32,000 bases of DNA from Candidatus Methylomirabilis limnetica (lineage in GTDB: Bacteria; Methylomirabilota; Methylomirabilia; Methylomirabilales; Methylomirabilaceae), in contig NZ_NVQC01000036.1 of assembly GCF_003044035.1 (NCBI RefSeq), positions 53,362 through 85,361 of the forward strand, in the 5' to 3' direction. This document shows, piece after piece, positions 1,016-30,501 of the stretch; position 1 is the stretch's first letter, and the number at the start of each line of letters is the position of its first letter. A program made the position numbers and the translations under genes. Below the pieces are notes generated by a model. That model was not told where the DNA came from and did no database searches. It worked only from the letters and a program-made list of their open reading frames with translations.

Positions 1016-1450
1016 ATATAGGGACAGACACTATTTATTGAAATCCTTTCTTGGTCTTCCCATCTGCTACACGTGTATTACTCATCCAGCTTCCTGCGTA
1101 CCTCCCAGATGAACCCGTCTCTTCGCAGTGGTTCTTTCGGGTGTTCCGTGGGTACCCTGGCCTTCCAGCATCCCCTCCCCCCTCGAGGGGGAGGAACACA
1201 GCTACCCTCTTCCCCGGAAGGGATATTGAGATCCCTCGTACCCACGCTAATGCCGGAAGAACCTTTGCAGTGGCTGCTCTGTCATCGTGCGCATTCGTAT
1301 CGCTGTCGTCCCGAAAGACCGCCTGGCGATCATTCCCTCGTTGCCTCACATGATACGGGTGGCCGGGTACAACAGCTCGGGTAATCCGTGGCATGCATGA
1401 TCATTGCAGCGAACACCACGAATTGTCACGATAGTAGTGTAGTGTCCCCA
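1016..1450 (-). mobile_element. Y1-transposase-derived MITE-like element, copy 1 (longest; degenerate right end; carries an extra 135-142 bp internal segment)
   Basis: It begins ATATAGGGACAGACACTA and aligns along its length with the copies at 6953, 8920, 24489 and 30208. The minus-strand remnant reads MPRITRAVVPGHPYHVRQRGNDRQAVFRDDSD. The right TIR is damaged (TAGTGTAGTGTCCCCA). Confidence 0.7.
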
Positions 1451-1568: not shown

Positions 1569-1584
1569 ACTGTAAAGACTTCAC

Positions 1585-1616
1585 AGGGACAGTACGCTAG
1601 CGTCTGTCCCTATTTT
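1585..1616. repeat. REPIN-like hairpin made of two inverted copies of the MITE terminal core
   Basis: AGGGACAG (1585-1592), an 11-nt loop, then CTGTCCCT (1604-1611) followed by ATTTT. This is the two TIR cores brought together with no internal sequence. Confidence 0.55.
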
Positions 1617-2432: not shown

Positions 2433-4031
2433 CTATGAGCCTGCTCGCCGGAGGCGAGGTATCTTTGGATCGCGCTGGGCGGCGCTCAAATGGGTCAGCG
2501 TCTCCTTTCCGACGATCCCGTCGGCCATGAGCGACCGACTACGCTGGAAGGCGATCACCCGGGCACGGAGGTCGTTGTCGAAGACCTGGCGATTCCGTCC
2601 TCCTCCGGGGACGCCGTCGAACTCGGCGAACTGCTCTCGCACCCACTCCACGTCCTTGCCGCGCGTGCCCGGCCTGATGGGAACCGAGCTCAACACGGGC
2701 GCCTTCCAGAGGAGAATGAACGGACCATCCCAGTAGAGGTCGATCTCGCTCAGCGGGAACACGTGCCGCCGCCCCCCGACGTCGAGGGTCGCGTTCTGCT
2801 CGTCTAGGGCCACCACCGTGGCATACCGACGATCTCCCGCCGGCGTCGACAGCTCGATGATGGCCGGCAGGTTAAATCGCCGGAGCTTGCCCCACGAGCC
2901 CGTCTTGAAGAGACACTGAAGTCCTTCGGAGCGACCGCGCTCGCAGTCGAGGTTGTCCATGGAGCCGTCGACGTCAAGGCGCCAGCTCGCATAGAGGCTG
3001 GCGAAGGCCGACTGCCTGTCTGCGCGTAGTGAGGGATCCGAGAGGAGCGCCGATAGTATAGCGGACGTCGGGGTCGGATTCATCGCACTCGGGATCACGG
3101 CACGCCGGATCAACCGAGCCTGCCCCTGAGTGACGAGCACCCAAGTGCCGGTGACGAGCACTACGACGAGCACCGCTGCGCCCACCCACTGCCATCGACG
3201 CGCGGACCGCGGCGTGAGCGTCTCACCGAGCACCTCGCTCGCCGCGCGGCGCACCGTGGCGGCCATGACACGACGTTGGTCTTGCGTGTATGCCCCGAGC
3301 AGCGCGCGGTCGCAGATGGCGTTGATCAGCCGCGGGATGCCGCGCGCCGCCCCGTGCACTGAGCGCATCGCCGCATCGGTGAAGATCTTTTTCTTCTGGC
3401 CGGCGATCTGGATTCGATGAACGATATAAGCTCGCGTGTCGTCCTCGGAGAACGCCAGCAGGTGATAGCGCGCGGTGACCCGCTGGGCCAATTGCCGGAG
3501 CTCTTCCTTGTCGAGCAATCGGATCAGCTCCGGCTGGCCGATGAGGATGATCTGCAGCAGCTTCTGGGTTGGGGTCTCGAGATTCGTCAGCAGCCGGATC
3601 TGCTCCAGGACATCGGTGGCGAGGTCCTGCGCCTCGTCGACGATGAGCACCGTGCGACGCCCCTGCGCGTGCGCATCGAGCAGGTGTCGGTAGAGCGCGT
3701 CGACGAAGAGCTTCCCGCTGGTCGTGCCGGCGGGATACGAGATACGGAGCTCGTCGCACACCGCAGCGAGCAGCTCGATATCCGTGAGCCGCGGATTGAG
3801 GATGAGAGCCACGTCCACGCGGGGCGGCAGTTGCTCCAGCAGACACCGGCAGAGTGTCGTCTTCCCTGTTCCAACCTCGCCGGTAAGCTGCACGAATCCG
3901 CCGCCTTCTCCGACCCCGTAGAGAAGGTGTGCCAGGGCTTCACGGTGACGCTCACTCATGTAGAGATAGCGCGGATCGGGCGTCATGGAGAACGGGACCT
4001 CGGTGAGGCCGAAATGCGTCGTATACATCAT
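2433..4031 (-). CDS. exeA: ExeA/GspA-type AAA+ ATPase with a C-terminal peptidoglycan-binding domain
   Basis: 532 aa with Walker A GEVGTGKTT and Walker B LIVDEAQ. The N-terminus FGLTEVPFSMTPDPRYLYMSERHREALAHL is typical of ExeA. It also has a TM helix and a C-terminal PG_binding_1-like segment (RARVIAFQRSRSLMADGIVGKETL). Confidence 0.85.
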   Translation of the reverse strand: MMYTTHFGLTEVPFSMTPDPRYLYMSERHREALAHLLYGVGEGGGFVQLTGEVGTGKTTLCRCLLEQLPPRVDVALILNPRLTDIELLAAVCDELRISYPAGTTSGKLFVDALYRHLLDAHAQGRRTVLIVDEAQDLATDVLEQIRLLTNLETPTQKLLQIILIGQPELIRLLDKEELRQLAQRVTARYHLLAFSEDDTRAYIVHRIQIAGQKKKIFTDAAMRSVHGAARGIPRLINAICDRALLGAYTQDQRRVMAATVRRAASEVLGETLTPRSARRWQWVGAAVLVVVLVTGTWVLVTQGQARLIRRAVIPSAMNPTPTSAILSALLSDPSLRADRQSAFASLYASWRLDVDGSMDNLDCERGRSEGLQCLFKTGSWGKLRRFNLPAIIELSTPAGDRRYATVVALDEQNATLDVGGRRHVFPLSEIDLYWDGPFILLWKAPVLSSVPIRPGTRGKDVEWVREQFAEFDGVPGGGRNRQVFDNDLRARVIAFQRSRSLMADGIVGKETLTHLSAAQRDPKIPRLRRAGS

Positions 4032-4291
4032 GTGACGTGGAAGGGGGCTGCGCTGCCCTTCCTCACCTTCCCCCGCGAGAATCGGAGAGGATGTCGTCGG
4101 CCGTCTTCGGCGGACAACGACGGCGTTGCGCCGGCGGAGCCGTCACCCGACCATCCCTCATTATTCAGCTTGCTGATAGCTGACATCTGATCATCGATGT
4201 GATAAGGCATTGCTTTCGATGACTGGAAGTAACTAATCCGCCCTCCTGGGAGTCCACATTACGGAGGCAACGATCCGGCTAACGATGAGTT

Positions 4292-4380
4292 CAGCGGGCG
4301 GCGTTTACGCCATCCCTGGAATGATTTGTTTGGCACATCCTCTTTGTGTATCAAACCTCAATGGTCGCTGTCCCTATTTT
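4292..4380 (-). repeat. About 89-bp repeat family, copy D, ending in AATGGTCGCTGTCCCTATTTT
   Basis: It aligns in modules with the copies at 22944, 25912, 27647 and 23806. The last 13 nt equal the MITE right terminus. It ends 7 nt before the stop codon of the minus-strand gene at 4388. Confidence 0.65.
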
Positions 4381-4387
4381 AAGAACT

Positions 4388-4735
4388 TTATCGTCTTTGG
4401 CGCGGTGTCTTGCCAGGCTGACACTGAGGATCAGGATTTGCGGATCGCTGTTTCAATAGCTCGCTAATCGTTCCCCTGAGCTTCATACATTGGATCGCAG
4501 TGTCGATGAATGGCTGGGCCAGTTTTGACGAGCCCGCTCTGGCCACCTGATCCGCGCCTTGATTGGCGGTAGCGGCCATCCCCTCATAGATACAGTAACG
4601 CTGGGTCAGCACCTGGGTGGTCATACCCTTCAGTTCAGCATACTCCACATGGCAATTCTCGGCCGCCGCTGAGACTCCGGGCAAAAAGGCGAGTAGTACG
4701 CCAAACGCGACACTTGCGCGTACAACGATTCGCAT
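4388..4735 (-). CDS. Small secreted hypothetical protein (signal peptide, four Cys)
   Basis: I chose the ATG at 4735 because GGAGG lies upstream and it begins the signal peptide MRIVVRASVAFGVLLAFLPGVSAAAE. I recognised no family. Confidence 0.5.
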   Translation of the reverse strand: MRIVVRASVAFGVLLAFLPGVSAAAENCHVEYAELKGMTTQVLTQRYCIYEGMAATANQGADQVARAGSSKLAQPFIDTAIQCMKLRGTISELLKQRSANPDPQCQPGKTPRQRR

Positions 4736-5059
4736 GGCCTTACCTCCTGCCGGATCCGATCCGACTGCTATCTGGCCCATAGATATTTACTGTCCCACCT
4801 TGTACCTTGCCATAGCCGACACTCCGCCACCTGGCTGTGCCAGGGCAATACCCTTGACAAAGTCGCCGCAGCGGTCATAAACGGCCATGTGCCCGGGCCA
4901 GCCCGGGCGGCTACCGTCCGGTGGGGGCGGCATCGAGGTCTCAGAATGGCTGTTGTGTTCACTGGGCACGGAGAGAGCGAGTGGAGACCCCTCTAATGCT
5001 TCCTATCGTCAAAAGCGTGGCGGCTGATTTTTACTTTCGGCGTTCTTATATTTTCTCAT

Positions 5060-5096
5060 TTTTAATTGTCGCTGTCCCTATTTTCCTATTTTCCTG
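5060..5096 (-). repeat. Minimal copy of the shared repeat terminus with a reiterated CTATTTT heptamer
   Basis: AATTGTCGCTGTCCCTATTTTCCTATTTTCC was read directly. It lies about 10-20 nt beyond the stop of the PQQ dehydrogenase gene. Confidence 0.5.
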
Positions 5097-5106
5097 AGAA
5101 AAGACG

Positions 5107-6918
5107 CTAGTTTTCCGGTAAGCCAAATGCGATGACCGCGTCCCCCAGCGGAAACTGGAACTTCTGGTGCCCCCCGGCAGCTACCACTATAAATTGCTTT
5201 CCACCCGCCTTGTAAATGACCGGCGGCGCATTAACACCGGCCCCCGTGTTGAACTGCCACAACAAGCTGCCGTCGCGTGCGTCACGGGCGGTAAATTGAC
5301 CATTGCTTTCTCCCACAAACACCAATCCCCCCGCGCTCGTCGCTACCCCTCCTACCAGGGGTTTATCGGTGTGTACCTGCCATTGAATCTTTCCGGAAGC
5401 GGGATCGATGGCACTTAACCTGCCCGTACCGGACTCCTCGGCGCTGGTTGCTGTAACGTAGATGTCGCTTAATCCCGGCTTACGCTTTTCAGGTGGTACA
5501 TCGTGTACGGTGTATTTAGTCGGCATGTGCACCGCCGCGACATAGATCCAACCGGTCTGCGGGTTATAGGCGGCGGGAGACCAGTCGTTACCCCCGACCA
5601 AACCAGGGGAAATCACGATCCCATCCCGTGTCGGGCGCCGGAAAATATTATGCTGTGGCACGAACGGCTCTGACCGTGATAACAACTTACCGGTCAGGCG
5701 GTTGAGGACATACAGCCAACCAGTCTTGCCGGCCTGGGCCACGGCAGGCGTGAGACGGCCGTTATGCATGGTATCGATGAGGATCGGAGGGCTTGCCACA
5801 TCATAGTTCCACACATCGTGAGGAACCTCCTGGAAGTACCATTTCAGCTGGCCGGTCCGGGCATCCAGGGCAACCAGCGAAGACGTGTAGAGATTGTCGC
5901 CGGGACGGGTAGAGTCATCCATTTGCGGCGCCGGATTGCCGGTGCCGACATAAAGCAACCCCGCGGCCGGATCCAGAGCGGGATGGGTCCACACCGAACC
6001 ACCACCTCTCTTCCAGGCATCTGCGTATTTGGGCAGTGCGGCTTTCTCCGCTTTCAGGTCGCGTTCCAGCGAGTCACCCGCAGCGGTCTGGCCAGAGAAT
6101 TTTCCTTCCCAACCCTGCGTGGGTGTGGAATACCAGCGCCAGCGCAACTTTCCGCTGCCGGCGTCATATGCTGATACAAAAGCCCGCAGACCCTGGTCTT
6201 CCCCGGCAATCCCTACCACCGCATGCGGATCACCTCCCGTGGTTGCCCTCAGCGTGAGGCCGTACCCGGCGCCAGTGACGCCAATGATCACCTGTCCATC
6301 AAATACCAGCGGTGCCATGTTTCCGGAAAAACCTGTCCAGCCGATGACTTTCCATGTTTTCAAGGTATCGGCCTCCGCCAGAAAATCCAGCGACTCCCGC
6401 GCGCCGGCGTTGGGATCCGCAACCGGCACATCCCATAGTACGGCCCCGGTGTTCATGTCGAGAGCGATCAGGCGGGCGTCGACGGTAATCATGTAAATCT
6501 TACCGTAACCCATCGCCACACCACGATTAGTAGGCCCACAACACAATTCCTCTGTCGTGAGCTTGTGCTCGTAACGCCATTTCATCTTCCCAGTCACGGC
6601 GTCCAGGGCAACGACGTGGTTATAGGGTGTGCTGAGGTACATGATCCCGTCGGCAATCAGCGGATTGGTTTGAAACGTGCCCGGTATCCCGGTCTGGTAG
6701 ATCCAGCGGGGGACCAGCCGTTTCACGTTATCGCGATTAATGTCATCAAGTTCAGAGTACCGTTGATTACTGTAGCCATGTCCATAGGTCAACCAGTTAC
6801 TGTTATCGGTATGCGCAGACAAGAGACGCTTGTCGTCCACCCCGTCCGCGGCCATAGCTACTGCCACAAGATTAAAAACACCTACCCCAAATAGAAGGCA
6901 ACGAAATAACGTCTTCAT
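5107..6918 (-). CDS. PQQ-dependent dehydrogenase, methanol/ethanol family (periplasmic quinoprotein)
   Basis: 603 aa from the ATG at 6918, with signal peptide MKTLFRCLLFGVGVFNLVAVAMAADG. It has NWLTYGHGYSNQRYS, the vicinal CC (EELCCGPTNRG), PGDNLYTSSLVALDARTGQLKWYFQEVPHDVWNYD and repeated beta-propeller W motifs. Confidence 0.85.
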   Translation of the reverse strand: MKTLFRCLLFGVGVFNLVAVAMAADGVDDKRLLSAHTDNSNWLTYGHGYSNQRYSELDDINRDNVKRLVPRWIYQTGIPGTFQTNPLIADGIMYLSTPYNHVVALDAVTGKMKWRYEHKLTTEELCCGPTNRGVAMGYGKIYMITVDARLIALDMNTGAVLWDVPVADPNAGARESLDFLAEADTLKTWKVIGWTGFSGNMAPLVFDGQVIIGVTGAGYGLTLRATTGGDPHAVVGIAGEDQGLRAFVSAYDAGSGKLRWRWYSTPTQGWEGKFSGQTAAGDSLERDLKAEKAALPKYADAWKRGGGSVWTHPALDPAAGLLYVGTGNPAPQMDDSTRPGDNLYTSSLVALDARTGQLKWYFQEVPHDVWNYDVASPPILIDTMHNGRLTPAVAQAGKTGWLYVLNRLTGKLLSRSEPFVPQHNIFRRPTRDGIVISPGLVGGNDWSPAAYNPQTGWIYVAAVHMPTKYTVHDVPPEKRKPGLSDIYVTATSAEESGTGRLSAIDPASGKIQWQVHTDKPLVGGVATSAGGLVFVGESNGQFTARDARDGSLLWQFNTGAGVNAPPVIYKAGGKQFIVVAAGGHQKFQFPLGDAVIAFGLPEN

Positions 6919-6952
6919 TTCTCTCCTGCCTTGCAAGTTGTTGGTCTCTCGA

Positions 6953-7248
6953 ATATAGGGACAGACACTCTTTATTGAAATCCTTTCTTGGTCTTCCCTT
7001 CTGCACCACGTGTATTACTCGTCCAGTTTCCTGCGCACCTCCCAGATGAACCCGTCTCTTTGCAGTGGCCGTTCTGTCATCGTGTGCCTTCGAATCGCTG
7101 TCGTTCCGAAAGATCGCCTGGCGATCATTCCCTCGTTGCGTCACATGATACAGGTGGCCGGACGCAACGGTTCGGAGAATCCGTGGCAGGCACGATCATG
7201 ACCGCGGACAGCACGAATCGTCACAATAATAGTGTCTGTCCCTATTTT
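6953..7248 (-). mobile_element. Y1-transposase-derived MITE-like element, copy 2
   Basis: ATATAGGGACAGACACTC ... TAGTGTCTGTCCCTATTTT. The minus-strand remnant reads ...HVTQRGNDRQAIFRNDSDSKAHDDR...KGRPRKDFNKE. It lies between the hydrolase stop and the PQQ-dehydrogenase start. Confidence 0.75.
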
Positions 7249-7363
7249 TACTATTTTTTAATTTTTTACGAGCGTGTAGTTCACTTTATTTTCGATCTCA
7301 CACTACAGCAACCAGGTGTTGATCGCCAACCCGGAGTTACTGCCCTTCATTACGGCCTGATCT

Positions 7364-8764
7364 TCACCTTGTTTCGCAGTTTATTGCGGTCTGCTTCTCG
7401 CTGCGGCTCGAGATCAGGATCATCTGCTTGACGAATTCGATGACTCGAGGATCGTCGATGTCGTTGTGCTCGTGGATCAGTTGCTCGTCGACGTAGACTA
7501 CGAGATACGGGTTGCGACCCGCCGAGTTGGTGGTGCGTTCCAGCACCACGTCACCAAACGTGATCTTGCTGCCGGGCGCGTCGCAGACCCAATCAGCTCT
7601 GGAGCGCTCGAACATCTGGATGCTGTCGGCGGCGCTGGCGGCCTTGAGTTCCTCACGCTTGCGTTCCTCCGTCGGGTAGAGGTGGTGGGTACGATAGGGT
7701 TTGAAATGACCGACGGCGCGGACATTGGCGTCATGTTCGCTGATCGTTTCCGTCTGACCGGTCTCTGCATTTCGGCGCTGGCGATCGTGCGTTTTCTCGA
7801 AAATGGTCGAGAACCAGCGCCCGATCGGAAAGGCGTAACGGGTTGCGGCATCGGCCTCGGAGGTCAGCACCAGCACGACCGGCAGTTGTGAGGAGAAATA
7901 GGTGCGCCGCTCGGCAGCCATGTCGCTCATCGGTGTAAACAGGTTGGCCTCAAATGCCGGGTTAATCAGTACCACCAGGTTGCCGAATCCCTCGATGTCG
8001 CTCTTGCGGCCTGCCGGGCCGGTGGTCTGGACAAAGCGGTTTTCCAGAAACTGGGCCACCGCGGTCTGCATCACCGCGCCGCCAAAGCTGTGGCCGACGA
8101 CCACGAGTTTGGTGTTACTGCTGCATAGCGTGTCGTCGTTTTTACTGACCGTACGATCGCGGCAGACTATGCTGTCCTTGGTGAGCTTGATATCCTCCAA
8201 CTGGCTCAGGACCTCGGCGACCCCGCCGTACCCGACTTTCTGGGCGGTGTTTTTGCGGTCCCAGAAGGTGACGTTTTCGAGATATTTCACCGGCAACGAA
8301 CCGCCGCGCCAGCCGAAGTAGATGCCGACCACCTGGCGGACTGGGGTACCCGTTCTCTTGGCCAGAAGGGCCTCGGCATCGCTCAGGTTGGCCAATACGG
8401 CGCGGAAGGTGTTGATATTGGTATCACCAGGCGCGGCGCTGTGCTTCCAGCCGTGCACAAACACCACCATCAGCAGATCGCGGGTACCGGCCCCGGTCTG
8501 GAGTGTCGTCAGGACATCGCGCATCTGCCGGCGGTCCCAGAGCTGGCCCTGGTCGTCGAATTCAATGAATCCGAACAGGTAGCTGGAGCCGTTATTGCCT
8601 GGCAGTTGTTGCAGCGCGTGGGTTTCACACTCAGGCGTGGGTTTCGGCTCCGGGCTGACGCACACGTCCGGGTGGACGGTACGGTATTTCATGTGCGGGG
8701 CGCAGGCCGTCACGGTCAGCAGTGCAAGAACAGTGGTGGCGATTGAGGCGGCTGTTGTTTTCAT
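7364..8764 (-). CDS. Lipoprotein alpha/beta-hydrolase of unknown specificity (DUF900-like esterase/lipase fold)
   Basis: I chose the ATG at 8764 because AAGGAG lies upstream. It has a lipobox LLTVTAC, the nucleophile elbow VVVGHSFGGAV, and VVFVHGWKHS near the N-terminus. Confidence 0.7.
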   Translation of the reverse strand: MKTTAASIATTVLALLTVTACAPHMKYRTVHPDVCVSPEPKPTPECETHALQQLPGNNGSSYLFGFIEFDDQGQLWDRRQMRDVLTTLQTGAGTRDLLMVVFVHGWKHSAAPGDTNINTFRAVLANLSDAEALLAKRTGTPVRQVVGIYFGWRGGSLPVKYLENVTFWDRKNTAQKVGYGGVAEVLSQLEDIKLTKDSIVCRDRTVSKNDDTLCSSNTKLVVVGHSFGGAVMQTAVAQFLENRFVQTTGPAGRKSDIEGFGNLVVLINPAFEANLFTPMSDMAAERRTYFSSQLPVVLVLTSEADAATRYAFPIGRWFSTIFEKTHDRQRRNAETGQTETISEHDANVRAVGHFKPYRTHHLYPTEERKREELKAASAADSIQMFERSRADWVCDAPGSKITFGDVVLERTTNSAGRNPYLVVYVDEQLIHEHNDIDDPRVIEFVKQMILISSRSEKQTAINCETR

Positions 8765-8919
8765 ATTCTTGTGCTCCTTTCCGTATCTCTGGCGCGTCAA
8801 GATTGACGCTTGCGGAAATAGTACGCCGGGCCTGGTGAAGAATCAATCCTCCTACACATACGCAAGAGCGGCATACTGTTGAACCATCCGATGCGTGTTG
8901 AAAAACTAATATAGAACTA

Positions 8920-9214
8920 ATATAGGGACAGACACTATTTATTGAAATCCTTTCTTGGTCTTCCCCTCTGCTACACGTGTATTACTCATCCAGTTTCCTG
9001 CGTACCTCCCAGATGATCCCATCCCCCTTCGCAGTGGTCGCTCTGTCATCGCGTGCATTCGAATCGCTGTCGTTCCGAAAGACCGCCTGGCGATCATTCC
9101 CTCGTTGCCTCACAGGATACGGGTGGCCGAATGCAACGGTTTGGGTAATCCGTGGCATGCACGATCATTGCAGCGAACACCACGAATTGTCACGATAGTG
9201 TCTGTCCGTATTTT
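8920..9214 (-). mobile_element. Y1-transposase-derived MITE-like element, copy 3 (best preserved)
   Basis: ATATAGGGACAGACACTA ... TAGTGTCTGTCCGTATTTT. On the minus strand there is an uninterrupted 58-codon remnant, MPRITQTVAFGHPYPVRQRGNDRQAVFRNDSDSNARDDRATTAKGDGIIWEVRRKLDE. Confidence 0.75.
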
Positions 9215-9230
9215 CTATTTTACTATTTTA

Positions 9231-9355
9231 CGATCTGATGCGGGTGAGATCGACGGCTGCGTCGAACATCGCCATGGAAAGGCGGTCATGCCGCTCGTTG
9301 CCCGCCGGGTCAGGTCGTGGGCGAAGTACTTCGCGTGGTGAGGGGTGAGGCTCAT
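9231..9355 (-). pseudogene. 5' fragment of an SNF2-type helicase gene, frameshifted and cut off by the MITE copy 3 end
   Basis: A hand translation of the minus strand from the ATG at 9355 gives MSLTPHHAKYFAHDLTRRA. After a 1-nt shift it reads DRLSMAMFDAAVDLTRIRS. I recall this as the N-terminus of SNF2-family helicases (M.LTPHQAKYFA.ELTRR....L...L.DA.VDLNPHQ). The fragment is under 60 aa and so is absent from the ORF track. Confidence 0.5.
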
Positions 9356-9415
9356 CGTCGTCGATATCTCAGTCGTCATAGCGTGGTGTTTTTGCGATGC
9401 CGGAAACCGCTACGC
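9354..9415 (+). pseudogene. 62-nt fragment of a vapC 5' end
   Basis: It matches 460-521 at 58 of 62 positions in my manual alignment. It encodes IVVDISVVIAWCFCDAGNRYA and has no remaining gene body. Confidence 0.7.
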
Positions 9416-9976
9416 CGGGACGAAATAGACATCGGTCGGTTTGAACTTGGAGAGGCGCCGGAATTTTGCCCGAACCTTCATCCCGACCCAATCCAGTGAG
9501 GGCTTCAGTGGATCGACGCCGAGCAGCCGTGAGAGGAACAGGGTATCGATACCAGGCCACTCCGCCAGGATCAGCACAAAGGGGGTCTCCTTCAGGAACT
9601 CCTCGCCCCCGAAGTAACAGACCGTGAAGGTGTGGACCGCGCCGACCTGGGGGAGCTCGAACCAGTCGCACTCGCTGCCGCAATCCATACAGTGCAGCTT
9701 AGGCGTCGCGTATTTGTATCCACACTTCGTGCAGACGGTCCCCAAGAGCTTCCCGTTAGCCAAGCCAGCGAAGAAGGGCGAGTCCTGTCCGTAGCTGTGG
9801 ATGTAATCGATTTGGTAGGACTGCTTGATGATGATGGGGGCCATGGCTTTGAGCTGGGCCAGGTCCTTAGGAAACGGGACATTAAACAGAATCGTCCCGT
9901 CGTCGGTCTCTGGCAACGCAACAGACTTTTCCTCGGGTAGCTTCCGACTCAGTCTCCCACGTTTGTCACTCGCCAT
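9410..9976 (-). CDS. DUF35 family Zn-ribbon/OB-fold protein (thiolase partner)
   Basis: I chose the ATG at 9976 because GGAGGAGG lies upstream. It has the Zn ribbon CTKCGYKYATPKLHCMDCGSEC and sits immediately downstream of a thiolase-like gene, the usual pairing. Confidence 0.75.
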   Translation of the reverse strand: MASDKRGRLSRKLPEEKSVALPETDDGTILFNVPFPKDLAQLKAMAPIIIKQSYQIDYIHSYGQDSPFFAGLANGKLLGTVCTKCGYKYATPKLHCMDCGSECDWFELPQVGAVHTFTVCYFGGEEFLKETPFVLILAEWPGIDTLFLSRLLGVDPLKPSLDWVGMKVRAKFRRLSKFKPTDVYFVPA

Positions 9977-10010
9977 TGTTTGCTCCCTCCTCCCATGCAC
10001 CGGCCATGGA

Positions 10011-11321
10011 TCAGACCTTCTCCATGATGCTTACGGTGACGTATGTCCCGGTGCCGGCGTGGCTGTGGATGGCCCCACGTCTGGCGCCCTTGACCTGCAG
10101 CCGGTCGTTACCAAAATGCTTTTTGATGCTTCCTTGTAGTTGCCACAAGGCGAAGACCGCCTGCATCAGGCCGGTGGCCCCCACCGGATGGCCGCAGGCG
10201 ATCAGGCCTCCCGAAGGATTGACGGGAAGCGTTCCGGGCTTCTTGAGCGCAAGACCGTAGTCGAGGTTGGGCAGAAAGGGGTTCCCCTCCTCCGCCCATC
10301 GGCCACCCTCCCCGTACTTGCAGAGGCCCATATCCTCGTAGGTCTGAATCTCGGAGGAGGTATAGGCGTCGTGCAGCTCGATGAAGTCCAGCGCCTCAAT
10401 CGGATTGGTGATCCCAGCCATCTCGTAGGCCAGCTTGGAGGCCATCCGGCCTGCCCGAAATGAATGGACGCCCGGGTACTTGAGACCACGATAGTCGCTG
10501 GCCCGCTCATGCGGGAGCAGCAACACCTTACGGTGAGGTCGGTCGGCCATCCGCATCGCGTCAGTCCCGCGACCGATGCCAACAATCTTGGCCGGTTTAA
10601 GTCGCTTGCCGCTCGCCTTCTCCAGCTTGCTGATCCCCTCCTCGCTGGCCAGAATCGTGGCTGCCGCCCCGTCGGACATGACGCAGATATCCAGCCGGGT
10701 CAGCGGCCAGGCCACCATCGGCGCGCGACGCACATCTTCGATCGTGAGGAGCTTTCGCTTCTGGGCATAGGGATTGTGAAAGGCGTTGTTGTGGTTCTTC
10801 ACCGAGACGTGGGCCATCTGCTCGACGGTCGTGCCGAATTCCTTCATGTGTCGGACCACCATCATCGCGTAGTAGCCGCTGTAAAAACCGCCCACCGGGT
10901 AGTCGAAGCTCACGTCGGAGGCCAGCGCGATAAATTCGTTACCCTTCCAGGTATTCACATGGGACATCGTCTCGAAGCCGTAGGCCACGCACACATCCAT
11001 GAGGCCCGAGGCCACCGACTTCCAGGCCTCTTGAAAACAGAGGCCGCCGGTGGCGCCACCACCTTCGACCCGGTGGCTCGGCTTAGGACAGAGCCCCAGA
11101 TAATCCTGCACCATAATGCCCGACATCAACTGTCGCTGAAAATGATCAGAGAAGTAAGATGCGACCGAGCCATCGACGATCTCAACAAACCGGGGATGCT
11201 CAAGCCCGAGGTCCTTGAGGGCATAGTCGTACGCCTCCTTCACCATCGGTTGGAAGGTGACGTCCGGCCTGGCCTTGGTGAATTTGCTCACCCCTCCAGA
11301 AACCATATATACCGGTCGCAT
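10011..11321 (-). CDS. Thiolase-domain protein, SCP-x / lipid-transfer type (acetyl-CoA C-acyltransferase-like)
   Basis: 436 aa from the ATG at 11321 (MRPVYMVSGGVSKF). It has GGGATGG, the C-terminal NPSGGLIACGHPVGATG thiolase motif, and the DUF35 partner. Confidence 0.8.
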   Translation of the reverse strand: MRPVYMVSGGVSKFTKARPDVTFQPMVKEAYDYALKDLGLEHPRFVEIVDGSVASYFSDHFQRQLMSGIMVQDYLGLCPKPSHRVEGGGATGGLCFQEAWKSVASGLMDVCVAYGFETMSHVNTWKGNEFIALASDVSFDYPVGGFYSGYYAMMVVRHMKEFGTTVEQMAHVSVKNHNNAFHNPYAQKRKLLTIEDVRRAPMVAWPLTRLDICVMSDGAAATILASEEGISKLEKASGKRLKPAKIVGIGRGTDAMRMADRPHRKVLLLPHERASDYRGLKYPGVHSFRAGRMASKLAYEMAGITNPIEALDFIELHDAYTSSEIQTYEDMGLCKYGEGGRWAEEGNPFLPNLDYGLALKKPGTLPVNPSGGLIACGHPVGATGLMQAVFALWQLQGSIKKHFGNDRLQVKGARRGAIHSHAGTGTYVTVSIMEKV

Positions 11322-22943: not shown

Positions 22944-23030
22944 CACCGGCGCGGCGAAGCCATGTCCGAGTTGATGCCTTGGTGATCAGCCGATGCAGGC
23001 AAATCGAAACAAATGGCCACTGTCCCTATT
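22944..23030 (-). repeat. About 89-bp repeat family, copy A
   Basis: CACCGGCGCGGCGAAGCCATGTCCGAGTTGATGCCTTGGTGATCAGCCGATGCAGGC...AAATGGCCACTGTCCCTATT. It starts 35 nt beyond the stop of the VIT gene. Confidence 0.7.
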
Positions 23031-23065
23031 GCACTGAGGTGTCGCGTTCCTTGACCCCATAGATC

Positions 23066-23805: not shown

Positions 23806-23850
23806 GAGCGGCGGCGTTTACGCCATCCAAATGGTCACCGTCCCTATTTT
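23806..23850 (-). repeat. Deletion derivative (45 bp) of the 89-bp repeat family, copy E
   Basis: GAGCGGCGGCGTTTACGCCATCC joins directly to AAATGGTCACCGTCCCTATTTT. These are the two end modules of copy D with the middle missing. Confidence 0.6.
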
Positions 23851-24034
23851 AGTAAGCGATCGGCGGTGAGCGGCTCTGTCACCAGTCCGCTTCATCGGCT
23901 GGTTGGGCAGCTATTCGAAATCTTCACGATGTGGGGTCGCAGAATGGAAACCGCCTCGTGCCATTCCATGGGTTCATTCTCCTCCAAGTCTGCCCAACAG
24001 ATATTAGCCGCCACTCCTTACACAGACTCGATGA

Positions 24035-24488: not shown

Positions 24489-24789
24489 ATATAGGGACAG
24501 ACACTCTTTATTGAAATCCTTTTTTGATCTTCCCCTCTGCTACACGTGCCTTATTCGTCCAGTGTCATGCGCGCCTCCCAGATGAACTCGTCTCTTCGCA
24601 GTAGTCGCTCTGTCATCGTGCGCATTCGTATCTCTGTCGTGCCGAAAGACTGCCTGGCGATCATTCCCTCGTTGCCTCACAGGATACGGGTGGCCGGATA
24701 CAACGGTTCGATCAATCCGTAGCGGGCACGATCATGACCGTACACACCACGAATTCCACGATACGCGTGCGCGTGTCTGTCCCTATGTT
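24489..24789 (-). mobile_element. Y1-transposase-derived MITE-like element, copy 4
   Basis: ATATAGGGACAGACACTC ... GCGTGTCTGTCCCTATGTT. The right end lies 3 nt from the stop codon of the 167-aa gene, and the left end lies 62 nt upstream of the 130-aa gene start. Confidence 0.75.
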
Positions 24790-25762: not shown

Positions 25763-25911
25763 CGTCAGAAGGATACGCTACGCCACATCGGTCCTGAAGG
25801 GAAGGACAATTCTGTCGGAGGACCGGCTGGCTTCCGGCACGAGCACCCACGCGATGCCTCGTTGATGGCCTCCGCACGCCGGGAAGTCATCGCGACTCCT
25901 CCGCCCGCGCC

Positions 25912-25998
25912 AGCAGCGCGGCAAAGCCGTGTCAGAGTTGATGCCCTGGTGATCAGCCGACGTAGGTGAATCTACACAAATGGTCGCTGTCCCTATTT
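25912..25998 (-). repeat. About 89-bp repeat family, copy B
   Basis: It aligns with copies A and C and ends AAATGGTCGCTGTCCCTATTT, 19 nt beyond the stop of the OYE gene. Confidence 0.7.
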
Positions 25999-27646: not shown

Positions 27647-27735
27647 CACCGGCGCGGCGACGCCGTGTCCGAGTTGATGCCCTGGTTATCATCCGATGCA
27701 GCTGAATCTACACAAATGGTTGCTATCCCGATTTT
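27647..27735 (-). repeat. About 89-bp repeat family, copy C (slightly diverged terminus CTATCCCGATTTT)
   Basis: CACCGGCGCGGCGACGCCGTGTCCGAGTTGATGCCCTGGTTATCATCCGATGCAGC...AAATGGTTGCTATCCCGATTTT. Confidence 0.65.
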
Positions 27736-29571: not shown

Positions 29572-30015
29572 ATGTGCGGTATCGTCGGCGACGTAGGCAC
29601 ACAACGTGCGGTCAACATCCTCCTCGAAGGCCTCACGCGCGTGGAGTACTGCGGCTATGACTCCGCCGGTGTCGCCGTCCGGGGGAAGGGGCAGATCGCG
29701 GTGGTCAAGAAGATCGGCCGCGTCGATACCCTCGCCAAGCTCGCCGCCCCGCGCACATTCCGCGCCACCACCGGCATCGGCCACACCCGTTGGCCCACCC
29801 ACGGCGACGTGACCGACGCCAACACCCATCCCCACCTCCGCTCCGACGGCACGTTCGCCCTCATCCACAACGGCGTGATCGAGAACTACGTTGGCATGAA
29901 GCGTTTCCTCATCGAGAAGGGCGTCACCTTCCAGTCAGAGACCGACACCGAGGCGCTCGTCAACCTCTTTGATAGGAATGTGCTTTTTGAGTTGAGAAGA
30001 TACCACCCGAAATAA
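29572..30015 (+). pseudogene. glmS: Truncated glmS: only the N-terminal glutaminase domain of glutamine--fructose-6-phosphate aminotransferase
   Basis: It begins MCGIVG (Cys nucleophile) and has GIGHTRWPTHG and HNGVIENY. Similarity to GlmS ends after SETDTEALVNL at about 29968, and 15 unrelated codons follow before the stop. The roughly 480 codons of SIS domains are missing. Confidence 0.75.
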
Positions 30016-30207: not shown

Positions 30208-30501
30208 ATATAGAGACAAACACTCTTTATTAAAATCCTTTGGGTCTTCCCCTCTGCAACACGTGTATGACTCGTCCAGTATCCTGCGCACCTCACAGAT
30301 GAACCCGTCTCTTTGCAGCAGCTGCTCTGTCATCGTGCGCATTCAAGGCTCTGTCGTTCCGAAAGACCGCCTGGCGATCATTCCTTCGTTGCCTCACATA
30401 ATACGGGTGACCAAACGCAACGGTTCGGGTCATCCGTGGCATGCACGTTCATGACCGCGAATACCACGAATTGTCACGATACTAATGTCTGTCCCTATTT
30501 T
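30208..30501 (-). mobile_element. Y1-transposase-derived MITE-like element, copy 5 (most diverged left TIR)
   Basis: ATATAGAGACAAACACTC ... TAATGTCTGTCCCTATTTT. The interior is collinear with the other copies. Confidence 0.7.

Follow-up and report, generated by a model that had tools for sequence, protein, structure and literature searches.

The 32,000-nt stretch of the Candidatus Methylomirabilis limnetica genome analysed here (the window) carries five co-oriented miniature repeats of about 296 bp, bounded by inverted termini and built from the two ends of a Y1 transposase gene. A repeat finder and a five-way alignment recovered all five where the original prediction had placed them, in one orientation and aligning from end to end (Table 1). 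Relative to copy 2, copy 3 is 87.6% identical, copy 5 86.1% and copy 4 86.1% over 266 nt, and the two halves of copy 1 are 93% and 85% identical. This recurrence is far above chance: an internal 24-mer occurs five times in the window against 0.00 expected, and the terminal 10-mer CTGTCCCTAT is found 16 times when one mismatch is permitted, for an expectation of 1.27. Independent assemblies from JGI, ENA, Logan and NCBI contain the copies too, which rules out an assembly artefact. The ~296-bp copies have in common inverted termini of 15–22 bp with the core ATAGGGACAGACACT, but the terminal inverted repeats (TIRs) that had been expected at every copy end are less uniform than supposed, as the gene-upstream terminus of copy 1 (near 1436–1450) is decayed (AGTGTAGTGTCCCC), copy 3 reads CCGTAT and the left terminus of copy 5 has two mismatches. 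Likewise, the ATG with which every copy was said to open is present in copies 1, 3 and 5, but copy 2 has CTG and copy 4 has no start codon. The surplus length of copy 1 comes from a nested 142-bp insert at one internal point, not from retained gene sequence. Inverted ends, GGTTCTTTCGGG...CCGGAAGAACC, delimit this nested element (about 1131–1273), which also contains a palindrome; it is bracketed by the 11-bp direct repeat CTTYGCAGTGG and folds as single-stranded DNA (ssDNA) with z = -4.8, and no second copy was found in any fetched locus.

The origin of the miniatures becomes apparent from their full-length relatives. About half of the matches listed by a scan of genome contigs with the terminal 15-mer were chance hits in unrelated genomes; also among the matches listed were Methylomirabilis contigs that carry ~296-bp copies, together with a Nitrospiria contig (L091) whose two repeat halves are 750 bp apart. 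In L091 (3745–4496) a terminus, AAAATAGGGACAGACACTATTT, is followed by a spacer of ~40 nt, an open reading frame (ORF) of 225 aa and an inverted terminus that contains the stop codon TAG. The miniature copies align to this unit and, at 77–81%, to an M. limnetica element (L155); in a further full-length unit, L134, their 5' part is 82–84% identical to positions 9934–10090 and their 3' part 86% identical to 10546–10691, while the 455 nt between (10091–10545) are absent from them. The deletion covers codons ~31–182, including the NHVH (HUH) motif and the RYVERNP motif with the catalytic tyrosine, both invariant in the family alignment of full-length proteins. A length of 455 nt is not divisible by three, which puts the C-terminal remnant (AIRRHTMTERPL..RKLD..RGRPRKDFNK) into another frame than the N-terminal piece. 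The earlier claims that the catalytic core is missing and that the frames differ between copies are borne out. The N-terminal remnant matches the L091 protein by BLASTP with 59% identity over 32 residues (E 3e-12), and the C-terminal tail aligns to residues 183–225 of the full-length protein. A hidden Markov model search with the translated remnants, which had been put forward as a check, gave no Pfam or NCBIfam match; the remnants being too short for one, their homology rests on the alignment to full-length relatives. These alignments support the view that the repeats are internally deleted, non-autonomous derivatives of both ends of a Y1 gene of the type associated with repetitive extragenic palindromes (REP-associated tyrosine transposase, RAYT), resembling MITEs (miniature transposable elements with inverted repeats).

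How these derivatives multiplied can be read from a larger set of 25 copies, 23 of them with distinct flanks, assembled from several assemblies by combining earlier loci with a metagenome scan for the internal 24-mer. All 25 have the identical deletion junction and the same length, whereas the 23 distinct copies have flanks without relation to one another, even immediately beside the termini, and none of these 23 shows a target-site duplication or a conserved flanking target. The shared junction, unrelated flanks and missing target duplication together lead us to conclude that a single deletion derivative was multiplied by transposition to many unrelated intergenic sites. The identical junction and length in 25/25 copies already refute the notion that five full-length transposase genes each decayed to a pseudogene on its own, which we regard as next to impossible and for which nothing speaks beyond the presence of gene fragments. 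Segmental duplication, recombination or assembly artefact in place of transposition is very improbable: recombination between copies does happen, as copy 5 illustrates (see below), but flanks that differ up to the termini in 23 copies and the same insertions in independent JGI, ENA, Logan and NCBI assemblies argue against it. Mean pairwise identity among the 25 copies is 86.5%, and 92% to the consensus, with conservation even along the element; the maximum pairwise identity, 98%, may reflect one locus in different strains. Substitutions in the 30 N-terminal codons fall on positions 1, 2 and 3 in the numbers 69, 60 and 43, without third-position excess, the ATG is lost in 11 of the 25 copies and the reading frames vary between copies; the copies are therefore non-coding.

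The protein encoded by the full-length units is of RAYT type. The 225-aa ORF of L091 matches PF01797 at 1.5e-16 and the model NF047646 (REP_Tyr_transpos) with 80.6 bits (cutoff 80), and scores 25.6 bits with the IS200 model NF033573, below its cutoff of 55. For the full-length protein P0010, AlphaFold2 modelling from an alignment of 33 sequences gave a mean predicted local distance difference test score of 84, and the model's top fold match in the PDB is 4ER8, E. coli TnpA-REP bound to a REP hairpin (E 1e-6), followed by the IS608, ISDra2 and IS200 TnpA structures; sequence searches of the PDB with the single protein and with a profile gave no match, so that the fold search alone succeeded. 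The family comprises at least 7,942 proteins at E ≤ 1e-10, mostly of ~225 aa and many on contigs of ~1 kb. A helical C-terminal region of ~85 aa is predicted with good confidence, and no Pfam helix-turn-helix (HTH) domain was detected in the full-length protein.

In the passages drawn on here, Di Nocera et al. 2013 (PMC3733652) describe RAYT-like genes that have long inverted repeats, in place of REPs, on both sides; they call the units TIRtrons and their proteins TIRYTs, report a GGGGWSAS motif in the majority of the repeats, though not all, and speak of "moderately abundant families" of repeats occurring singly, as dimers or grouped. In the corresponding part of Quentin et al. 2018 (PMC6006769), most TIRYTs fall in TnpAY1 subclass 2.1, with a C-terminal HTH-like extension (Bac_DnaA_C / HTH_23 / HTH_28) and with REPs absent beside them. 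The elements studied here share with these published descriptions a RAYT-like Y1 gene between long inverted termini (~22 nt in L091, L134, L155 and the miniatures), a stop codon that overlaps the downstream terminus, and termini dispersed as singles and dimers (one dimer and six solo sites in the window). Their terminus core comes close to the GGGGWSAS motif, with AGGGACAG in the M. limnetica copies, matching 7/8 positions, GGGGACAG in the M. oxyfera copy and GGGGACAC in a divergent element, L032, whose gene is 42% identical and has its own terminus, not the M. limnetica type; the extra helical C-terminal region of the protein may be the counterpart of the HTH-like extension. By layout and protein features, and as far as these accounts describe the class, the elements belong to the TIRtron/TIRYT class, approximately TnpAY1 subclass 2.1. 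The original prediction was right to exclude IS200/IS605 and to see a RAYT-type protein; its assignment to the REPtrons gives way, because the gene is flanked by long inverted repeats and not by REP hairpins. Whereas the TIRtron families in the cited passages are bare termini, the unit amplified here is a 296-bp deletion copy of the whole TIRtron with both gene ends, which is what is new; neither the NC10 host phylum nor the ~22-nt multi-phylum terminus figures in those passages of the two papers. In the closest full-length TIRYT gene (P0015, on L134), a stretch of ~20 residues (10225–10290; GVQRGPYAVCSIFQQREE) departs from the reading frame of the family alignment, through either a frameshift that was later compensated or an error in sequencing.

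Comparison with other systems helps to place the family. Like RAYT–REPIN pairs, in which REP doublets form hairpins (Nunvar 2010; Bertels & Rainey 2011; Ton-Hoang 2012), it combines an apparently single-copy Y1 gene at a fixed locus and under purifying selection with short non-autonomous repeats that carry its flanking sequence, the repeat forms a long hairpin in ssDNA, and the nearest solved fold is TnpA-REP (4ER8). In contrast to REPs, the termini (ATAG-GGACAGACACT) have neither a GTAG tag nor a self-complementary hairpin or internal palindrome, so that one terminus pairs with the other and not with itself, the unit is a ~296-bp segment with gene remnants rather than a REP doublet of ~70–110 bp, and copy density is apparently lower. 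With classical bacterial MITEs the miniatures share small size, inverted termini, lack of a transposase, multiple intergenic copies with unrelated flanks and a related full-length gene in the genome, but they differ in having no target-site duplication, as expected since the cognate enzyme is a single-strand HUH Y1 transposase and not a DDE enzyme. IS200/IS605 elements resemble them in the missing target duplication (at 23 copies) and in strand-biased orientation, for which our GC-skew result is weak, and are set apart by the inverted termini present here and by the IS200 protein model, which the L091 ORF does not reach. Palindrome-associated transposable elements (PATEs) are gene-less IS200/IS605 derivatives that lack inverted termini and retain asymmetric subterminal hairpins at the left and right ends. 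The miniatures resemble PATEs as non-autonomous Y1-element derivatives that keep only the ends and lack a target duplication, and differ from them by the same two features, inverted termini and protein type. An integron-like cassette array with attC-type repeats between genes was ruled out, as an integrase is absent and the repeats show homology to a Y1 gene unit.

A full-length gene in the genome had been named as the thing to search for. The 90%-identity cluster of P0010 includes, besides M. oxyfera proteins, WP_107563546.1, "transposase [Ca. M. limnetica]", of 225 aa. All 13 contigs that encode exactly this protein have one context, ThiI(-) – TIRYT(+) – NMO(+), and some of them come from SRR4754859, the sample that also gave a contig identical to the window. 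Two further loci, L134 and L135, are syntenic with this arrangement, and the ratio of nonsynonymous to synonymous substitution rates (dN/dS) between the resident gene and theirs is ~0.15. The resident TIRYT gene thus occupies a fixed locus and is under purifying selection. Its upstream terminus is intact, with a 15-nt core identical to the terminus of the miniature copies. An intact full-length gene therefore does exist in the same species, but with only 77–81% DNA identity to the miniatures and a decayed downstream repeat it is, judged by these identities, not the recent parent of the miniature family; it is likely their trans-acting partner. Protein searches with the remnant and with the fused N- and C-terminal remnant returned 3 and 10 short ORFs, all from other miniature copies. 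The protein P0128 had no record in the exact-protein lookup.

We consider it probable that the ~296-bp non-autonomous family arose once from a ~750-bp TIRtron (a 225-aa TIRYT gene between ~22-bp termini AAAATAGGGACAGACACTATTT) and spread, with an intact TIRYT still resident in the genome. Several observations weigh against this view. The downstream terminus of the resident gene has decayed, with 3 mismatches in 17 positions; L134, from another organism, is closer to the miniatures than the resident gene is; and no closer full-length master was found by protein searches with the remnants among 5.8 billion proteins. No empty, pre-insertion site was found, mobility being deduced from the unrelated flanks rather than from a presence/absence pair, and the copies are old (8–15% diverged), with nothing to show present-day activity. 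The GC-skew test of orientation (below) is weak and confounded with gene orientation. The searched literature mentions TIRYTs only in Di Nocera et al. 2013 and Quentin et al. 2018, and no biochemistry for any TIRYT was found in it; and each terminus lacks the self-complementary hairpin bound by characterised Y1 enzymes, so that the cleavage mechanism set out below is conjecture. The divergence of 8–15% from the consensus, uniform along the length, the foreign provenance of L134, the distance and decayed terminus of the resident gene and the failure to find a closer master also speak for a fossil family, amplified by a lost L134-like master, now immobile and not recognised by the resident TIRYT. 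We hold this to be a real possibility, though well short of an even chance, since most copies keep an intact 15-nt terminus core that agrees exactly with the resident upstream terminus, the resident gene is held under purifying selection, and the same terminus core occurs with proteins just ~42–57% identical, which makes cross-recognition plausible.

If a single derivative did spread at the hands of such an enzyme, we envisage that a TIRYT supplied in trans, by the resident gene or by a closer relative now lost, would mobilise the miniatures. In ssDNA the two termini would pair as a panhandle akin to a REPIN hairpin; in copy 2 they fold as a 15+6-bp stem with z = -3.9. The transposase might recognise either this panhandle or the individual termini in ssDNA, with tyrosine cleavage at the foot of the panhandle, near AATAG|GG and CC|CTAT, and the segment could then be moved by single-strand peel-and-paste as in IS608 and ISDra2. 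The copies serve as direct repeats between which recombination removes or gains genes, and may place a promoter that reads outward within the 5' regions of host genes. Copies on the same contig are always co-oriented (5/5, 3/3, 2/2 and 2/2; probability ~0.004 if orientations were independent), and the GC skew of the sense strand is positive in 13 of 17 loci (two-sided p ~0.05), as IS608-type targeting of the lagging-strand template predicts; the two observations fit, weakly, a single-strand, replication-linked choice of target. Copy orientation relative to neighbouring genes called from long ORFs was dropped as unreliable in GC-rich DNA.

Sequence just outside the termini is not random. Extra AATAG units occur within 30 nt in 9 of 21 upstream flanks against 1.9% in controls (p ~1e-10), CTAT[AT] occurs in 6 of 23 downstream flanks against 3.4% (p ~1e-4), and both motifs are strictly side-specific. 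This stutter may reflect target choice or slippage of the enzyme. It consists of tandem partial copies, 7–14 nt long, of the outermost terminus bases, AAATAGG upstream and CCTATTT or CCTATAT downstream, as seen in the window at 9210–9245, 7245–7275 and 5081–5097 and elsewhere in L144 (1130–1176, 1473–1510) and L154 (3715–3758). Among the matches listed, similar stutters stand beside family termini in other phyla, and the same 15–22-nt terminus occurs in Nitrospirota, Omnitrophota, Elusimicrobia, Planctomycetota, Desulfobacterota and other phyla. Those matches also include perfect REPIN-like palindromes of ~50 nt in which two termini are joined in head-to-head arrangement (AAATAGGGACAGACACTATTTATT-loop-inverse), at numerous places in a single Elusimicrobia metagenome-assembled genome (L006, L048, L069, L075, L079, L103) and in Omnitrophota (L015). 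In M. oxyfera, a ~50-nt repeat, GTCAACGGAATTTCAAC..CCATAGGGACAAAGGCCGCC, recurs with ~1.2 kb spacing (L162 1470–1520, 2630–2680 and 3945–3995) in an array of small toxin–antitoxin genes and shares ATAGGGACA with the termini.

Full-length relatives from several phyla conserve a TTGACA -35-like box adjoining the upstream terminus, and a -10-like box ends ~6 nt before the ATG, which suggests, from sequence, a near-leaderless promoter that has been kept in the miniatures. That the copies have been co-opted as portable promoters or 5' leaders (for instance of the PQQ dehydrogenase), or as a small regulatory peptide or RNA, would accord with the promoter-like site kept inside the upstream terminus and its -35 box conserved across the family, with copies 2, 3 and 4 lying 34, ~155 and 61 nt upstream of co-oriented genes, and with 88-nt repeats (D4, below) that likewise lie upstream of genes. 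We nevertheless find co-option quite unlikely: coding constraint is lacking, the ATG having been lost as noted above, no segment is conserved above the rest, an Rfam search of the whole window gave no match, and the promoter is a 9/12 consensus match that occurs at chance frequency for the region. A bolder proposal, which we put forward as speculation and think unlikely to hold in full, is that TIRYT and miniatures form a long-lived, vertically inherited partnership of RAYT–REPIN kind, at an evolutionary stage at which the repeats still betray their origin as deletion copies of the gene unit; the stutter would mark where a Y1 enzyme that acts on a two-terminus panhandle, and not on a hairpin, cuts and rejoins, and the copies would also serve as near-leaderless promoters and as recombination handles for swapping genes, including at the PQQ methanol-dehydrogenase locus.

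Although the miniatures are a fairly ordinary type of genomic parasite, they belong to a little-studied family. RAYT-like genes between TIRs are numerous, with at least 7,900 proteins in the 225-aa subfamily alone, and scarcely studied, and a multiplied derivative that keeps ~150 nt per end is indirect evidence that the unit of gene plus termini transposes whole, while setting bounds on the sequences required in cis. A substrate (termini and panhandle) and a named candidate enzyme, WP_107563546.1, are thereby available for a first mechanistic test, and the miniatures are a plausible intermediate in the origin of REPIN-like repeat populations from a Y1 element. In work on Methylomirabilis genomes, the repeats matter because they interrupt assemblies, mediate deletions and lie directly upstream of metabolic genes.

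Table 1. Miniature copies, parts of copy 3, and other terminus-derived sequences in the window
Feature	Position	Strand	Description
Miniature copy 1	1016..1450	-	Upstream terminus decayed; nested ~142-bp palindromic element inside
Miniature copy 2	6953..7248	-	Ends 34 nt 5' of the start codon of a PQQ methanol/ethanol-type dehydrogenase
Miniature copy 3	8920..9214	-	Terminus, promoter-like site, 30 N-terminal codons, junction, ~43 C-terminal codons out of frame, terminus
Copy 3, gene-upstream inverted terminus	9194..9214	-	Minus strand AAAATACGGACAGACACTATC
Copy 3, sigma-70-like promoter	9164..9193	-	GTGACA, 18-nt spacer, TG-AATGAT; ~6 nt before ATG; consensus match, putative function
Copy 3, remnant of TIRYT codons 1-30	9069..9158	-	MPRITQTVAFGHPYPVRQRGNDRQAVFRND
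Copy 3, deletion junction	9068..9069	-	AACGAC|A|GCGATTCG; equals loss of L134 positions 10091-10545
Copy 3, remnant of TIRYT codons ~183-225	8935..9067	-	AIR..RKLDE..RGRPRKDFNK; stop TAG within terminus; out of frame
Copy 3, gene-downstream inverted terminus	8920..8941	-	Plus strand ATATAGGGACAGACACTATTTA
Miniature copy 4	24489..24789	-	ATG lost; 61 nt 5' of a 130-aa gene
Miniature copy 5	30208..30501	-	Recombinant of L139 copies A and B
Back-to-back terminus dimer	1583..1613	.	ACAGGGACAGTACGCT|AGCGTCTGTCCCTAT, minimal hairpin; ssDNA fold -9.5 kcal/mol, z = -2.65
Solo terminus-like site	4356..4382	-	Minus strand AAAATAGGGACAGCGACCATTG; 11 nt past gene stop
Solo terminus-like site	5060..5097	-	Followed by CCTATTTT stutter; conserved in M. 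oxyfera
Solo terminus-like site	23826..23850	-	AAAATAGGGACGGTGACCATTTG
88-nt repeat D4a	22944..23031	-	Variant terminus plus TIRtron 5'-end-like sequence; upstream of a nitroreductase-family gene
88-nt repeat D4b	25911..25998	-	
88-nt repeat D4c	27647..27734	-	Terminus partly decayed

The six solo sites of the window have AAAATAGGGACAG in common, followed by CGACCATT; three of the six head the D4 repeats, which are oriented as the miniatures are. The D4 copies are 83–85% identical, start with the variant terminus AAATAGGGACAGCGACCATTTG, each lie upstream of a minus-strand ORF and align loosely to the 5' end of the TIRtron. They may be one-ended remnants of a second family or a co-opted leader.

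At the locus of copy 5, L139 has two co-oriented copies (336–631 and 2981–3274) around a segment of 2.35 kb, with a gene for a 496-aa epimerase-like protein, that is absent from the window. The first ~20 nt of copy 5 derive from L139 copy A and all that follows derives from copy B, the crossover falling at about nt 20–53; by this mosaic pattern it is a clean recombinant of the two. The interval between ChsH2 and GspA holds, in M. oxyfera (L162; FP565575.1 about 557,100–558,900), a single miniature copy, then a MazG-like gene, then a solo terminus. In M. limnetica (window 3562–9991) the order is copy 3, a 478-aa hydrolase-like gene, copy 2, the PQQ dehydrogenase gene, one solo site, a gene of 130 aa and a second solo site, so that terminus-bearing sequence separates each gene from the next. 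Tested as a mosaic of copies 2 and 3, the one copy of M. oxyfera showed no clean pattern.

The neighbours of the copies are ordinary chromosomal genes, for thiolase, methylmalonyl-CoA mutase, electron transfer flavoprotein, acyl-CoA dehydrogenase, GlgC, pyrroloquinoline quinone (PQQ) dehydrogenase and GspA/B-like proteins, and three window proteins match the Ca. M. limnetica proteins PTL34989.1, PTL34993.1 and PTL34991.1 exactly. At 23915/23916 the window lacks 693 bp (L124 605–1297) that most related contigs carry, comprising most of a 232-aa gene of which the first 18 codons alone remain; L122 shares the deleted form. Between copy 3 and the ChsH2-like gene lies a 61-nt fragment (9355–9415) that is 95% identical to the 5' end of a PIN toxin gene (445–882) at 461–521 and looks like the remnant of a second toxin–antitoxin locus. 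On the plus strand at 29572–30015, a 147-aa ORF corresponds to just the glutamine-amidotransferase N-terminal domain of a GlmS-like protein, truncated ~190 nt from copy 5, and the identical truncation is present in L139.

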